From the NCBI GenBank assembly GCA_022072175.1, contig JAJVIE010000003.1:665840-729839 (forward strand): DNA of 64,000 bases, in the 5' to 3' direction. The stretch comes from Candidatus Omnitrophota bacterium (lineage in GTDB: Bacteria; Omnitrophota; Gorgyraeia; 2-02-FULL-51-18). A program made the position numbers and the translations under genes. The notes beneath the pieces are model-generated. The model was given only the letters and a program-made list of their open reading frames with translations. It was not told where the DNA came from and did not search any database. This document shows, piece by piece, positions 44,197-50,339 of the stretch (position 1 is the stretch's first letter; the number at the start of each line of letters is the position of its first letter).

Positions 44197-44944
44197 GGTC
44201 GATGACCATCTTCTTGACCACGCCCTTGCCGGGCGAGCCGAGCGCGGCGCCGTTGAGCGTCAGGGACATGTTGGAGGAGTTGCCCGTCCAGATCTCGTAG
44301 GAGGACACCGCGGTCCAGGATTCGGTGGCGCCGCGCTTGAGGATGGACTGGAAGACGATCTTGCCGTCCGCGGTCACCCTCATCCAGACGTTGTCGAGGG
44401 CCTTGATGCGCAACTGCAGCGGAGCGTTGCGGTTGATGCGCGGATAGTTGCCCTGAGAGGGGCTCCTCAACCACGTCCCGTCTTTTTCGACGGGGACGAC
44501 AGCGGGCGCCTTGCGCGGGGCCTGAGTCCTGACCTGCGTGCGCTGCGAGCGCAGACCGGAGATCCTCTCATAGGCCGCCTTACCCGCCGCGAAGATCAGC
44601 GCCGCGCCGGCAAGTACAACGCAGAGAAGGATCGCCGGAGCGATCCAGCGGCGGTCCGACGTCTTCTGGCGCGATTCAGCGGGACGGATGAACAGGACCT
44701 GCTCCGGCTCCCGGCGCCCTTGTTTCTCGTAATTGGAGACGACCTGATCGGCGTCGATCTGCAGGAAATCCGCGTAACTGCGCAGGAAGCTCTTGGCGAA
44801 CAGCGGGCTCGGGAGCTTCTCGAACTTGTCCTCCTCCATCAGCTGGAGCACACGGGGATGGATCTTGATCTTCGCGTGCACCTCTTCGTGGGTCAGGGAT
44901 TTTTTCTCACGCGCTTCCTTGAGCTGACCGCCGATGGTGCTCAC
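44171..44944 (-). CDS. rodZ: RodZ-like cytoskeleton protein (HTH plus TM plus DUF4115)
   Basis: 257 aa. N-terminal XRE-type HTH (IGGQLKEAREKKSLTHEEVHAKIKI), one TM helix, and a C-terminal DUF4115-like beta domain. Confidence 0.75.
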   Translation of the reverse strand: MSTIGGQLKEAREKKSLTHEEVHAKIKIHPRVLQLMEEDKFEKLPSPLFAKSFLRSYADFLQIDADQVVSNYEKQGRREPEQVLFIRPAESRQKTSDRRWIAPAILLCVVLAGAALIFAAGKAAYERISGLRSQRTQVRTQAPRKAPAVVPVEKDGTWLRSPSQGNYPRINRNAPLQLRIKALDNVWMRVTADGKIVFQSILKRGATESWTAVSSYEIWTGNSSNMSLTLNGAALGSPGKGVVKKMVIDRDGVRNRS

Positions 44945-47412
44945 GCCGGCGTCTCCTCGGAGCCGCCGGGCTGGGCCTCGGGTCGCTCGACCAGGATCTC
45001 CCTGGGCTTGGCCCCCCTGTAAGGACCGACCACACCGTCCTCCTCCATCATGTCGATCAGGCGCGCCGCGCGGGTGTAACCGACACCCAGGCGCCGCTGG
45101 ACCATCGAGACCGAAGCTTGGCCTGTTTCAAGAACGACCCTCTTGGCTTCTTCGTAGACCTGGTCCCGCTCGAACGTCGCGAAACCCGCCTTCTTCTCCA
45201 CGCCGGCGGAGACCACGTCCGCGTAGGCCGGCTTGCGCTGTTTCTTGATGAAATCCGTGATGCGCTCGACCTCGGCATCCTGGACCCAGGCGCCCTGAGC
45301 GCGCACGAGCTTGGACCGGCGGGGATCCATCAATAGGAGGTCTCCGCGCCCCAACAGCTTGTCAGCGCCGTTCTCGTCCAGGATGGTGCGGCTGTCGACC
45401 TTGGAAGCGACCTGGAACGCCAGTCGGGCCGGAAAATTGGCTTTGATGACGCCCGTGATGACGTCCACGGAGGGCCTCTGCGTGGCGAGGATCATGTGGA
45501 TCCCGACCGCGCGCGCCAACTGCGCCAGACGCGTGATGGCGGTTTCGACCTCCTGGGCGGAGGTCATCATCAGGTCGGCCAGCTCGTCGATCACGAGCAC
45601 GATGTACGGCAGCTTACGGACGATCACCGGTTCGTCCTCATTGTCTTCCGTGATCTTCACGAACCTCGGGTCGATCTGTTTGTTCTCGACCTTCTCGTTG
45701 AACGCCAGGATGTTGCGGGCCCCGACCTTCGACAGGACCTTGTAGCGGCGCTCCATCTCGTTGAGCAGCCAGCCGAGCGCGTTGGGAGCCTTCGTCTTGT
45801 CCGTGACGACCGGGCAGATCAAGTGCGGCAGGTCGTTGTAGAAGTGCAGTTCCACCATCTTGGGATCGATCATGAGGAACTTCACTTCTTCGGGTGTGGC
45901 CCGGTACAGGATCGAGGTGATGATGCTGTTGATGCAGACGCTCTTGCCGGTGTTGGTGGCGCCGGCGATCAAGAGGTGCGGCAGATCGGCCAGGTTGCAG
46001 ACCAGCGGGGAACCTGCCGTGTCCTTGCCGATCGCGATCGCGACCTTCGAGCGCTCGTTCTGGAATTCGGGCGAAGCGAGCACTTCGCGGATGTAGACCG
46101 TGGCGGCGGCGGAGTTGGGGACCTCGATGCCGACGCGCGACTTGCCGGGTATCGGGGCCAGGATGCGCACCGACGCGGCACGCATCACCAGAGCGATATC
46201 GTTCTCGAGCGAAGTGATCTTCTGGACCTTGACGCCCGCCGCGGGCTGCAGCTCATAGCGGGTGATCGTGGGTCCCTGCTCCACCTCGACGACCTTGGCA
46301 TCGATCCCGAAATCCCTGAGCGTATCCTCCAGGACCTTGGAACTCTCCTGGAGCGTATCGCGCATCTTGCCCTGATCGAGCGGCGGCGGGGCCTGCAGGA
46401 GGTCCATGGCCGGCAGAGCGTACGCCGGCAAGTCCTCCTCGACCGGGAGCGGGGCGGCGTCGGCGGCTTTGGGCTTGAGCTCGTCGGCCTTGGCCGCGGC
46501 GGCTTTGGCAGGCTGTGGCGTATCGGTCTTCGGTGTCACCGGGGGTTTGGTCATTTCGCGGACGGCGTCCTTCGAAGGCTCCTTCACGGCATCCTTGCCG
46601 GCCGAGCTCTTGGGTTCGAGCGCCGTCTCGTTCTCGCGGTTGAGCTTGATCTTGGGCGGTTGCGGCGGCGCCGTCGGAGCGGCCGGTACCGGCACGATCT
46701 GAGCCCCGCTGCGCGCCTCCGCTTTGACGACCTTCGCGGGTCCGCGCTCTTTCTGGATGAGCTCCTGCAGGGCCGAACGCTTGACCGCCGGGACGCCGGC
46801 CTTGACAGTGGCCGCCGCGCGCTCGGTCTCAGCGTTCTTGAGGTAGCGGTCGCGGAGCCTGCTGAACAGATCCACCGCCATCTGCAGCAGGAGAAGCTCC
46901 GAGGCCAGAAGGATCGAGAGGATGAGCAACGATAGAGCCACGAACGCTCCGGCCGGACCGACGAACAGGTCGAGCCACTGAGCGCCGAAATACCCGAGCA
47001 TCCCCCCGCTCTCGAAGCGTCCAACGGAGTCCCGTCCGAACAGGATCGAGGCCAGCGCGCAAGAGGAACTCATGAAGATCACGGTGGAGAAGACCTTGAA
47101 GGACAGGTGCTGGCCTTTGCGGCCGGCCCAACGGGAAAGCGCCCAGGTCAAAAGGAGCGGGATCAGCAGGAACGCGGCCGACCCGAAGAGCAGGCGGAGC
47201 GCGAACGCCGTGTAGGCGCCGGCGACACCGGCGTAGTTGTGCGCCGGAGAATTGGGCGCCGACACCAGCCACGAGATATCGGTGGGTGTATAGGACAACA
47301 ACGAGAGCGTCAGAAGGACCGACACGACGATCCAGAAGAACGCCTGGATCTCGCCCCGCTTGCGTTGATCGAGGCGCTCAGACGCCCGTGTGTCCGAAGC
47401 CGCCTGCGGCAC
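44941..47412 (-). CDS. ftsK: DNA translocase FtsK
   Basis: N-terminal TM helices, a Pro/Ala/Lys-rich linker, the motor domain ([20 protein letters not shown]) and a C-terminal gamma domain. Start placed at the GTG at 47410-47412, preceded by GGAAGGGAG. The track ORF reads back into dut. Confidence 0.85.
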
Positions 47413-47827
47413 GCTGGCTCCCTTCCAGATCTTCGACGGTCTCGAACTCGGCCCTGACGACCTCCTGGAGGACCAGCTGGGCCATGCGGGCGCCCCTGCG
47501 AACGACGTAGGGCTCTTTACCGAGGTTGGTGACGATGAGCTTGATCTCGCCGCGGTAGTCGCTATCGATGGTGCCGGGAGCATTCACAAGGGTGACGCCG
47601 TGCTTGAGCGCCAGTCCGCTGCGCGGACGCACTTGCGCCTCGTACCCCGGAGGCAGGTGGATGGAGAGGCCCGTGGGGATCAGATGGATCTCCCCCGGAG
47701 ACAGAACGACCTCTCCGCGGATGTCCGCGGAAAGGTCCATTCCGGCCGCCCCGGCGCTCATGTACGCCGGAGCGGGCAGGTCCTCAGTTCCAGGATTTCT
47801 TTTGATCAGGACCTTGACTGACTTCAC
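47378..47827 (-). CDS. dut: dUTP diphosphatase
   Basis: Conserved Dut motifs ([25 protein letters not shown]). Start placed at the GTG at 47825-47827 ((V)[21 protein letters not shown]). The first 39 codons of the track ORF are Ala/Val/Thr junk from the pnp tail repeat read in another frame. Confidence 0.85.
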
Positions 47828-50063
47828 CGCGCTCGCCCCTGTACGGACGTTCGCCGCGGTCGCCGCGGTCGCCACGACCGCCGCGATCACCGCGGTCGCC
47901 ACGATCCCCCCTGCCGCCGCGATCGCCCCGGTCACCGCGATCATTGCGGCGCTGGACGACGGGCGGGCCCTCCATGGTCGACTGCTTCTTGGAGAGGTTG
48001 ATGCGGCCCTGTGTATCGATCTCGATGACCTTGACGCGGATGGGGTCGCCGACCTTCACGACCTCATCGACGTTCTCCACGTACTTGTCGGAGAGCTCCG
48101 AGATGTGGCAGAGACCCTCTTTGCCGGGCAGGATCTCGCAGAACGCCCCGAAGTTCATGATACGCTTGACGGTGCCGTCGTAGACGCGGCCGACCTCGGG
48201 ATCCTCGGTGATGCCGCGGATCATGTCGATGGCCTTCTGCGAACAGCCCTGATCGCTCGAAGCGATGCGGACCGTGCCGTCGTCCTCGACCTCGATCGTC
48301 GCGCCGGAATCCTGCTGAATCTTACGGATCATCTTGCCGCCGGGGCCGATGATCTCGCGGATCTTCTCCGGATCGATCTTGATCGTGGTGATGCGCGGCG
48401 CGAACGCCGACAGCTCGCGGCGCGGAGCGGACAGCGCCTGGTTCATCTTCTGCAGGATCTCGAGGCGGGCCTTACGAGCCTGCTCGAGCGCGTTCTGCAG
48501 CATCTCGACGGACAGCGACTCCTTGAGCTTCAGGTCCAGCTGGATCGCGGTCACGCCGCGCTCGTTACCGGTGACCTTGAAGTCCATGTCGCCCAGATGG
48601 TCCTCGACTCCGGCGATATCGGTCAGCACGGCGTACTTGCCATTGCGCGTGACCAGACCCATCGCGATGCCGCTGACCGCCGAGCTCGTGGGGACGCCCG
48701 CGTCCATCAGGGCCAGCGATCCGGAGCAGACGCTCGCCATGCTCGAGGAACCGTTGGACTCCAGGATCTCAGAGACGATGCGGAGCGTGTACGGGAAGGC
48801 TTCCTTGGTCGGCAGAACGGGCTTGATGCCGCGTTCGGCCAGGGCGCCGTGACCGACCTCGCGCCGGCCGGGACCGCGCACGGGCTTGATCTCGCCCACC
48901 GAGAACGGCGGGAAGTTGTAGTGCAGCATGAACGACTTGTAGATGTTGCCGTCGAGCGAGTCGATCGAATCGATCATCTGCTCGTCCTTGCTGGTGCCGA
49001 GCGTGGCCACGCCGAGAGACTGCGTCTGTCCGCGCGTGAACAGCGCCGAGCCGTGGGCTCGGGGCAGCACGCCCACCTCGATGGAGATCGGGCGGATCTC
49101 ATCATAGCGGCGGCCGTCGGGACGGACCTGCTTGTCGAGGATGTAGCGGCGGACCTCGTCCTTCTCCACCTCGTGGAACGCCCAGGCCAGTTGGCCCTCC
49201 GTCACGGTGGCGCCTTCGACGAGGTAGTGCTCCTTCGCCTTGGCGTACAACGCATCGACCGCGGCGTAACGCTTCTCCTTCTCACGGTCCTCGTTGTTGA
49301 TCCGCTCGAGCTCCGGAGCGCAGAACTTCGTCAGCTCGGCCAGGAACTCATCGGACACGGTCTGCAGTTCGTGCGCCAGAGTGGGCTTGCCGCACTCGGC
49401 CTGCATCTTGCGTTGGAGCTCCAGGAGCGGCTTGAGCTGCTCGCGGGCGAACTCCAAGGCCTCGATGATCTTGGTCTCCGGCACGAACTTCGCGCCCGCC
49501 TCGATCATGATGATGCCCTTCTCGGTGCTCGCCACGACGATGTCGAGGTCGCCCTTCTCGGTCTCGTCGAACGTCGGATTGAGGATCAGACGGCCGTCCA
49601 CCAGACCGACACGCGCCGCAGCCATCGGGCCCAGGTAAGGCGCGCCGGAGATCATGAGCGCGGCCGAGGCGCCGATCATCGCGGGGATGTCGGAGTTGTT
49701 GACCTTATCGGCGGACAGAACGTTGGCGATGACCTGGACCTCGTGGTAGAAGCCCTCGGGGAACAACGGGCGGATGGGGCGGTCGATCAGGCGAGAGACG
49801 AGCGTCTCCTTCTCCGTCGACTTTCCCTCACGGCGGAAATAGCTGCCCGGGATCTTGCCGCCGGCGTAGCTCTTCTCCTGGTACTCGCACGAAAGCGGGA
49901 AGAAATCCGCGTTGGCCTTGGGCTTTTTGCCCACGCACACGGCGACGAGCACGATCGTGTCGCCGACGCGCACGGTCACGGCGCCGTCGGCCTGCTTGGC
50001 CATGCGGCCGGTTTCGATGACAATACGCTGCTGTCCGAGAGTGATCTCGTATGTTCTATGCAT
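47784..50063 (-). CDS. pnp: polyribonucleotide nucleotidyltransferase (PNPase) with a C-terminal RGD/RGG-repeat tail
   Basis: 759 aa. Two RNase PH domains, KH and S1 domains, then [40 protein letters not shown] at the C-terminus. Confidence 0.95.
47830..47950 (-). repeat. imperfect tandem 9-bp repeat (cgcggtcgc-like) encoding the PNPase RGD tail
   Basis: Sequence gccgcggtcgccgcggtcgccacgaccgccgcgatcaccgcggtcgccacgatc... It is coding low-complexity sequence, not a CRISPR array: there are no spacers and the period is 9 bp. Confidence 0.7.
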
Positions 50064-50069
50064 TGGATT

Positions 50070-50339
50070 TTACTTTCTAAGATCGAGCTGCTGGATGAGT
50101 TTCTGGTAGGCTTCCTGGTCGTTGCGCTTGAGATAGTTCAGCAGCTTGCGTCGCTGCGAAACCAGCTTCAGGAGGCCGTGGCGGGAGTGATGGTCCTTCA
50201 CATGGGCCTTAAAATGATCACCGAGATTGTTGATGCGCTCGGTCAGGACGGCGATCTGGACATGGGATGAGCCGGTGTCCTTGTCGCTCTTCCTATGGGT
50301 CTTGATGACCTCTTGTTTGCGCTGCTTGCTGATGGGCAT
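50070..50339 (-). CDS. rpsO: 30S ribosomal protein S15
   Basis: 89 aa from the internal ATG: [44 protein letters not shown]... The 69-aa N-terminal read-through in the track ORF was rejected. SD GGAGAAGG upstream. Confidence 0.92.

Follow-up and report, generated by a model that had tools for sequence, protein, structure and literature searches.

A predicted disordered Arg-Gly-Asp/Glu repeat tail on the polyribonucleotide nucleotidyltransferase of an Omnitrophota bacterium, next to the start of an overlapping dut gene

The polyribonucleotide nucleotidyltransferase (PNPase) encoded by the pnp gene of a Candidatus Omnitrophota bacterium runs 66 amino acids (aa) beyond its S1 RNA-binding domain. 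The gene lies in a stretch of 64,000 nucleotides (nt; assembly GCA_022072175.1, contig JAJVIE010000003.1, positions 665,840 to 729,839), the whole of which we call the window and to which all coordinates refer; pnp, dut and the features that we locate within them are on the minus strand. The core of the extension is a run of 13 Arg-Gly-(Asp/Glu/Gly) triplets. We propose that it is a genuine, translated, disordered C-terminal tail of PNPase, which would have grown by in-frame tandem duplication directly 5' of the codon at which the overlapping dut gene starts, and which would add weak multivalent contacts to the enzyme. We give this explanation, taken as a whole, a probability of roughly 0.55; as far as sequence can tell, our confidence in a specific function of the tail is only moderate.

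The tail begins with a linker of 14 residues (aa 694–707, 47943–47984), in which the conservation within the clade reveals a (D/E)(A/G)PPVV motif followed by basic residues. It continues with the repeat array (aa 708–747, 47823–47942), which the codon table resolves into one Asp and 13 R-G-x triplets (seven RGD, three RGE, two RGG and one RPY), and it finishes with 12 residues that end in QKKSWN. The triplets are organized in higher-order units of 12 residues, called A (aa 708–719), B (aa 720–731) and C (aa 732–743), all inside 47823–47942. At the DNA level, Tandem Repeats Finder detects an imperfect tandem repeat at 47851–47942 (no strand assigned), with periods of 9, 18, 27 and 36 nt and nine copies spaced by 9 nt. 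The period of 9 gives 9.9 copies with 70% matches and a score of 80, and that of 36 gives 2.5 copies with 81% matches and a score of 115. It is the sole tandem array with a score of at least 70 in the entire 64-kb window, so that the repeat is real rather than something that GC-rich DNA produces by chance. No RGD-type tail is found on the other proteins encoded by real genes of the window. The first-pass annotation, made from the DNA letters, had described an R/G/D low-complexity extension after S1, encoded by an imperfect 9-nt tandem repeat at 47830–47950. The extension is indeed in frame, with the triplets exactly as quoted, and the 9-nt repeat is its coding basis; the coordinates were close, and they are replaced by those of the triplet array and of the Tandem Repeats Finder array given above.

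The tail is predicted to be intrinsically disordered. In an AlphaFold2 model built from a 41-sequence alignment, the mean predicted local distance difference test score (pLDDT) of the core is 83, the KH and S1 domains score about 80–90, and S1, the last folded domain (aa 622–693, 47985–48200), itself scores about 80–87 with beta strands that reach residue 691. Residues 707–759, on the contrary, score 32–37 and have no secondary structure. None of the solved PNPases aligns past residue 713 of the query, so that the tail is covered by none of them. The solved canonical enzymes end approximately 5–20 residues past S1, whereas the window protein has a tail of 66 aa with a 40-aa R-G-D/E repeat.

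The comparison with related enzymes bears on whether the repeat is correctly read. The 71 closest homologs (59–72% identity, from Omnitrophota where the source is named) share a tail whose layout is S1 – KKQ(S/A)xx(D/E)(A/G)PPVV – xKR – (S/G)EN(S/G)K – xFxQKK(S/F)(W/R)(N/S) – stop, and KKSWN is the commonest ending (22/71). The window protein has the start (GPPVVQRR) and the end (QKKSWN and stop) of this clade tail, and the repeat sits between them. Since the end that is typical of the clade follows in frame after the repeat, the reading frame is intact across it. The orthologs have no earlier stop codon that would place the end of pnp upstream of the repeat; their stops hold the same place relative to dut.

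The first-pass annotation had also raised the concern that a collapsed or frameshifted repeat could fake the extension. In favor of such an assembly or sequencing artefact, one metagenome-assembled contig is the only source of the sequence (one member, one contig): the only identical database protein (P0001, named PNPase) comes from a metagenome-assembled genome (MAG) of Candidatus Omnitrophica, on a 1.59-Mb contig, the protein database search with the window PNPase returned no homolog between 72% and 100% identity, and an exact 26-nt DNA scan of the JGI metagenomes for strain variants of the repeat found nothing, hence no second copy. Against it, the clade-specific QKKSWN end continues in frame past the repeat, the distance from the dut start to the pnp stop is the conserved 44 nt, and intermediate expansions exist at the same site in relatives. 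Moreover, the repeat units have diverged, and the longest exact repeated word within the array is 15 nt, which makes collapse by k-mer assemblers unlikely. For practical purposes, we consider that an artefact is excluded.

The divergence between the units also informs on selection. Units A and B encode the same 12-aa peptide; of their 36 nt, 8 differ, spread over 7 codons, and each of these differences is synonymous. In simulations in which 6–8 random substitutions were distributed over about 10 synonymous and 26 non-synonymous sites, an all-synonymous outcome was obtained in at most 1.2e-4 of the cases. When A and B are read in the dut frame, 7 of their 12 residues differ. That the changes are only synonymous in the pnp frame and alter most residues in the dut frame shows that selection acts on the pnp frame, whose amino-acid sequence has been under purifying selection since the duplication, while the silent sites drifted. 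A silent divergence of 8 in 36 nt further implies that the array is old rather than a fresh product of slippage, and it makes it less likely that the array is hypermutable at present. The earlier statement that the repeat is prone to length variation therefore has to be split: it is right across species, since this site is a hotspot where the tail length ranges from 24 to 115 aa, and it is not shown for strains, the units being diverged and their differences synonymous.

The relatives suggest where the repeat comes from. In those with short tails, the pnp codons that lie over the dut start are CGC GGT GAA AAC (R-G-E-N), and the array of the window repeats the same 9 nt, as CGC GGT GAY/GAA. A graded series is found at this one site, from KRGENSK to KRERGENSK, KRSERSDRGENGK and KRGDRPGRGDRGERGENNK (P0030), with KRSERGENGK as another step, and then to P0022, P0011, the window protein and P0054, which is 801 aa long and has three GPRGGSDR units (an 8-aa repeat). 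The type of unit varies with the lineage (RGD in the window, GPRGGSDR in P0054, RDRD in P0035), and in a neighbour-joining tree of the enzyme cores, the long tails fall on no fewer than three or four separate branches: that of the window protein; P0071; P0090, P0116 and P0117; and the subclade of P0011, P0022 and P0054. The separate branches and the differing units indicate that the expansions are largely independent. Every one of them lies 5' of the dut start, as expected, since the downstream 44 nt encode two proteins.

We propose that in the window a 9-nt unit (CGC-GGT-GAN, encoding R-G-D/E) was first duplicated in tandem and in frame, and that a 36-nt unit was then duplicated in turn. The insertion would have occurred at the sole unconstrained gap of the clade tail (S1 – PPVV – KR – insert – RGE(N) – ... 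QKKSWN); the RGE codons directly 3' of this gap contain the dut start codon. On the other side of the insert, the (D/E)(A/G)PPVV motif and the K/R residues that follow (47943–47984) recur in almost every one of the 71 closest PNPases from Omnitrophota. The PPVV motif is outside the dut overlap and is thus conserved for the sake of PNPase itself; it could be a short linear interaction motif.

The dut gene (47378–47827) encodes 149 aa and a stop. Its start codon, GTG 47825–47827, is in the +1 frame and within the last repeat triplet of pnp (CGC-G GTG A-A), and the two genes share a dual-coding overlap of 44 nt (47784–47827), which is apparent from the codon tables and from the offset in relatives. 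The product matches the Pfam dUTPase family (E = 2e-30, aa 18–148), and its residues 3–148 align with residues 3–148 of a solved dUTPase of 150 aa, 8y1q (E = 2e-45): the fold is collinear with trimeric dUTPases from the first beta strand. When the 149-aa protein is used in tblastn, the alignment begins at residue 1 in nine loci. The rpsO-pnp-dut-ftsK synteny is kept in eight related contigs, in six of which (L081, L084, L088, L089, L090 and L091) the dut GTG is 44 nt before the pnp stop; in the remaining two, dut starts with TTG at 47 nt (L086) or with GTG at 50 nt (L082). The dut-frame peptide V-K-(T/S)-(V/I)-K-(V/I)-x-(V/I/L)-K-R-(N/S)-P-G is conserved in the related contigs, the N-terminal V-K-x-V-K-V...K-R-x-P-G recurs in nine relatives, and nothing upstream of V-K-(T/S)-V-K in this frame is conserved in any of the relatives compared. 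The codon tables, the alignment with 8y1q and the relatives all confirm the first-pass placement of the dut start at this GTG, inside pnp and in another frame, as well as the statement that the apparent long N-terminus of dut is the repeat read out of frame. We rejected an extended dut starting in the repeat as the main form, because the extension is not conserved in relatives; a start at GTG 47900–47902 would add to the dUTPase a 25-aa hydrophobic extension that resembles a signal peptide. Automatic gene calls that start dut at an internal Met (127 aa), as many public ones do, omit the first beta strand and the overlap.

A Shine–Dalgarno (SD)-like sequence, AGGGG (47836–47840), is found 8 nt upstream of the dut GTG, with an anti-SD duplex energy of -5.7 kcal/mol. 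In pnp, its bases belong to the codons of Arg742 (AGG) and Gly743 (GGC), and stronger equivalents exist in relatives (AGAGGAGAG in L081, AGGAG in L086). This putative site would serve the initiation of dut. The bases that encode the end of pnp (KKSWN and stop) also encode, in the other frame, the dut residues KRNPGTE. The adjacency of pnp and dut is also seen outside the clade (L070, L037, L006, L001 and other loci; for instance, some Deltaproteobacteria, Binatia and a distant Omnitrophota MAG), and must therefore be older than the 44-nt overlap.

Tails of this kind are not restricted to the clade. In a diverse sample of about 74 genome PNPases among the matches listed, all distant (at most 53% identity), most tails have 6–30 aa and are acidic or neutral, and 7 are R/G-rich (in Gemmatimonadota, Chloroflexota and Zixibacteria). 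A search with S1 plus the tail found 575 proteins; among the 120 matches listed, RG(D/E)RG occurs in 114 and at least three consecutive RG(D/E/G) triplets in 75. It is important to note that these proteins were selected for their similarity to the query, so that they establish the existence of such tails, not their frequency. The named sources of S1 domains with RGD tails include Gemmata, Ilumatobacteraceae, Anaerolineaceae, Aquabacterium, Sumerlaeota and Streptosporangiaceae, which span Planctomycetota, Actinomycetota, Chloroflexota, Betaproteobacteria and Sumerlaeota. The tails of PNPases from other phyla and of standalone S1 proteins (P0131, Paenibacillus) have near-identical motifs directly after S1, whereas their S1-proximal linkers and repeat units differ and many are longer, extending into Q-rich or acidic ends, which points to independent origins. 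The version in the window lies inside the PPVV...QKKSWN tail specific to Omnitrophota and borders on the overlapping dut gene. The first-pass verdict that the tail is not part of canonical PNPase thus holds for the solved enzymes and fails as a general statement, since R/G/D tails after S1 are frequent across many phyla.

The search with the tail only gave three matches at database-wide E-values, which include a protein annotated as collagen (the best match) and a fragment of ribosomal protein S6 (P0123). RGDRGDRGG-type repeats form the C-terminus of this S6 fragment and a central stretch of standalone S1 proteins of about 160 aa from Paenibacillus and relatives (P0163, P0164, P0202 and P0229), which end in a conserved KRGGRGARR. 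These occurrences hint at a general role of R-G-D repeats as accessories of small RNA-binding folds. Our literature searches on PNPase C-terminal extensions and RGG tails found no paper on the subject. The window tail nonetheless belongs to a known class, that of the disordered Arg/Gly-rich extensions of bacterial RNA-metabolism proteins, which is common in sequences.

The repeat contains 13 Arg against 11 Asp or Glu, which leaves its 40 aa with a net charge of +2, and it has no Lys; the whole tail has a charge of +4. The tails of the relatives have net charges of +4 to +9 whatever their length, so that the insert adds length and arginine valence rather than charge. The tri-RG pattern is present (12 RG dipeptides with a 3-residue spacing). 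With Arg as the basic residue, the ratio of opposite charges is 13:11 = 1.18, within 1:1 ± 0.3, and it is borderline in the best 60-aa segment (17:13 = 1.31). The most fitting description of the extension is a disordered tail of mixed charge, based on arginine and spaced by glycine. We rejected by reasoning the possibility that RGD acts here as an integrin-type adhesion motif: PNPase is cytoplasmic, and the motif is a by-product of the R-G-D repeat.

The first-pass annotation had likened the tail to the RGG tails of RNase E and DEAD-box helicases. The C-terminal regions of the helicases RhlE1 and RhlE2 are net basic, whereas the PNPase repeat is near neutral (+2 over 40 aa), with an Asp or Glu behind almost every Arg-Gly. 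The likeness is correct as regards an Arg/Gly tail, since RhlE1, RhlE2 and the Arg-rich segments of RNase E are likewise low-complexity, disordered C-terminal extensions that vary with the lineage; it is not correct as regards a basic RGG tail, considering the two RGG, the net charge of +2 and the alternation of Arg with Asp or Glu. Eukaryotic RGG/RG motifs are similar in their tri-RG pattern, their disorder and their attachment to KH or S1 RNA-binding domains, and differ in that the window has two RGG separated by 9 residues and acidic residues that neutralize the charge. Arginine methylation of such RGG/RG motifs is not known from bacteria. The disordered C-terminal regions of RhlE1 and RhlE2 have been described as aiding RNA binding (PMC11260450). 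In the work of Greig et al., mixed-charge domains are defined by a charged fraction of at least 0.7 over 60 aa and a ratio of positive to negative charges of 1:1 ± 0.3, and RD repeats condense in a length-dependent manner for which arginine is essential, the shortest constructs, RD20 and RD30, not condensing in vitro. The window repeat shares with these domains the alternation of Arg (not Lys) with Asp or Glu, at a ratio near 1:1; it differs in being one third glycine and in having only 11 Arg–acid pairs per chain, and the system of Greig et al. is eukaryotic and nuclear.

Regarding function, we propose that the PNPase homotrimer would carry three flexible, Arg-rich, mixed-charge arms that emerge from the S1/KH face, where RNA enters. 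Through these arms, the enzyme would gain multivalent contacts with RNA and/or partner proteins, weak and unspecific as to sequence, and its basic C-terminal end would reach further. They may in this way affect RNA binding, degradosome-like assembly or condensation.

Several observations weigh against a tail that is maintained for its function. The loci with long expansions have a GC content of 0.61–0.65, versus 0.46–0.54 for those without, and the length of the tail correlates with the GARP/FYMINK ratio of the enzyme core (Spearman rho 0.43, p below 1e-6): tail length tracks GC-rich composition, so that mutational bias could drive the expansions. The modal tail among the 71 closest homologs has 29 aa, and most close relatives manage with that. 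The di- and tri-RGG patterns (RGG 0–4 residues apart) are absent from the tail, whose two RGG (aa 715 and 727) are 9 apart. The charged fraction, 0.50 in the best 60-aa segment and 0.60 in the best 40-aa one, is below 0.7. A charge-neutral insert with two RGG may contribute little RNA affinity, and it may be the overlapping dut frame, not the function of PNPase, that keeps the terminal QKKSWN conserved. The main rival explanation is accordingly that GC-driven slippage expanded a constraint-free stretch of the tail, where RGD/RGE units, being charge-neutral, soluble and harmless, are tolerated without having any function; the differences in unit type between lineages and the net charge, which the insert leaves unaltered, also fit with it. 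This explanation is possible, and we do not favor it, because the synonymous-only divergence of units A and B argues for a constraint after the duplication and because very similar RGD/RGG tails after S1 are found again in numerous lineages that are not related, as well as in standalone S1 proteins, beyond what drift would be expected to produce. Part of this signal could nevertheless be mimicked by selection merely against harmful residues.

Another explanation, which we find improbable, is that the repeat acts as nucleic acid in the translation of dut: by copying the initiation unit (CGC-G GTG A), it would provide SD-like G-runs, a standby site, upstream GTG codons or an extended dUTPase. 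The dut GTG does fall inside an RGE unit, and the repeat contains further dut-frame GTG codons at 47933–47935, 47900–47902, 47888–47890 and 47873–47875. The second of these is preceded by AGGGGGG, whose anti-SD energy of -9.9 kcal/mol is the strongest of the region and in the first percentile of the gene, yet the spacing to the GTG is only 3 nt. SD-like motifs also tend to be better in expanded loci (-9.1 in L081, -6.6 in L086) than in short-tail ones (0.1 in L089, -0.7 in L090). These indications are opposed by the lack of conservation of the dut-frame units (7/12 residues differ between A and B) and of everything upstream of V-K-(T/S)-V-K in relatives, by the collinearity of the dUTPase with solved enzymes from residue 3, and by the synonymous-only divergence, which points to selection on the pnp protein. 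An mRNA structure at the repeat or the overlap was rejected as a feature, its z-score of -1.94 not being significant and its centroid being almost empty. Less probable still is a collagen-like stalk, in which the Gly-X-Y triplets of three PNPase subunits would wind into a short, rigid triple helix, nucleated by the trimeric core of the enzyme and standing on the three-fold axis as a stalk or lid over the S1/KH entry of RNA. In its favor, PNPases are obligate homotrimers, and an Arg at position Y stabilizes triple helices; the tail has ten uninterrupted G-X-Y triplets (G710–R739, mostly G-D-R, with Arg in Y) and two more after one interruption, it matches Pfam Collagen PF01391 below threshold (E = 0.003, 17.7 bits versus a curated cutoff of 27.2), and its best database match is annotated as a collagen-like repeat protein. 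However, the G-X-Y register is not conserved among homologs: runs with Gly at every third position do not exceed 4 in all 118 other relatives analysed, and the period of P0054 is 8 residues. The register being unique to the window sequence, its periodicity follows simply from the 9-nt DNA unit. The 30-residue run also has no proline and is short for a stable helix, and the AlphaFold2 model, which is that of a monomer and not of the trimer, has no structure there. Such a helix, if it exists, would be the first of the collagen type on an RNA-decay enzyme of the cytoplasm.

The assignment of the gene itself is based on its open reading frame (ORF), its Pfam domains and its collinearity with solved PNPases. 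The pnp coding sequence (47784–50063) encodes 759 aa and a stop; its product comprises RNase_PH (two stretches, E = 1.5e-63), RNase_PH_C, PNPase PF03726 (aa 242–319), KH_1 (aa 559–616) and S1 (E = 5e-22), that is, two RNase PH-like domains with the alpha-helical PNPase domain between them, and KH and S1 on the C-terminal side. It is collinear with 3cdi_A (E = 4.8e-219, query 8–713), 7ogk, 4nbq and 4am3. The canonical enzymes of E. coli (3CDI/7OGK), Caulobacter crescentus (4AM3/4AIM) and Streptomyces antibioticus (1E3P) have the same set of domains, collinear over residues 8 to 700 or so of the query, and the canonical rpsO-pnp gene order is also found in the window, where it is part of ligA-xerC-rbfA-truB-ribF-rpsO-pnp-dut-ftsK-rodZ. 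Judging from its family, the window PNPase would form a homotrimeric ring with phosphorolytic 3'-5' exonuclease activity.

The GC content of the window is 0.648, and that of the third codon positions (GC3) of pnp is 0.88. An open frame of 900 aa runs antisense to the whole of pnp (47568–50270, plus strand), with a low-complexity translation rich in Ala, Leu, Arg and Asp; it is the usual stop-poor frame opposite a gene with a GC3 of 0.88, and has no evidence of coding. On the other side of dut, the mechanically called ftsK ORF (44941–47583, 880 aa) extends about 200 nt into dut (47378–47583). Its first 70 residues or so are dut read out of frame, and Pfam FtsK_4TM begins at residue 74. In relatives, ftsK starts 1–14 nt past the dut stop, and the true ftsK start is probably just downstream of 47378.

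It is recognized that RNA helicases and RNase E tune their RNA binding, choice of partners and formation of condensates by means of disordered tails rich in Arg and Gly, and the window together with the tails seen in other phyla indicates that PNPase has repeatedly acquired R-G-D/E tails. The locus holds no large surprise for a specialist and is a pointer for comparative or biochemical study; what it teaches lies rather in the signal of selection, in growth that leaves the charge unaltered, and in the conserved 44-nt overlap that both seeds and confines the expansion. It illustrates how an overlapping downstream gene can channel the evolution of its neighbor: the dut start is fixed, and the tail of PNPase would have grown upstream of it by copying the unit that contains the start codon. 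If these tails matter, a trimeric PNPase with three multivalent arms could be its own scaffold in lineages such as Omnitrophota.

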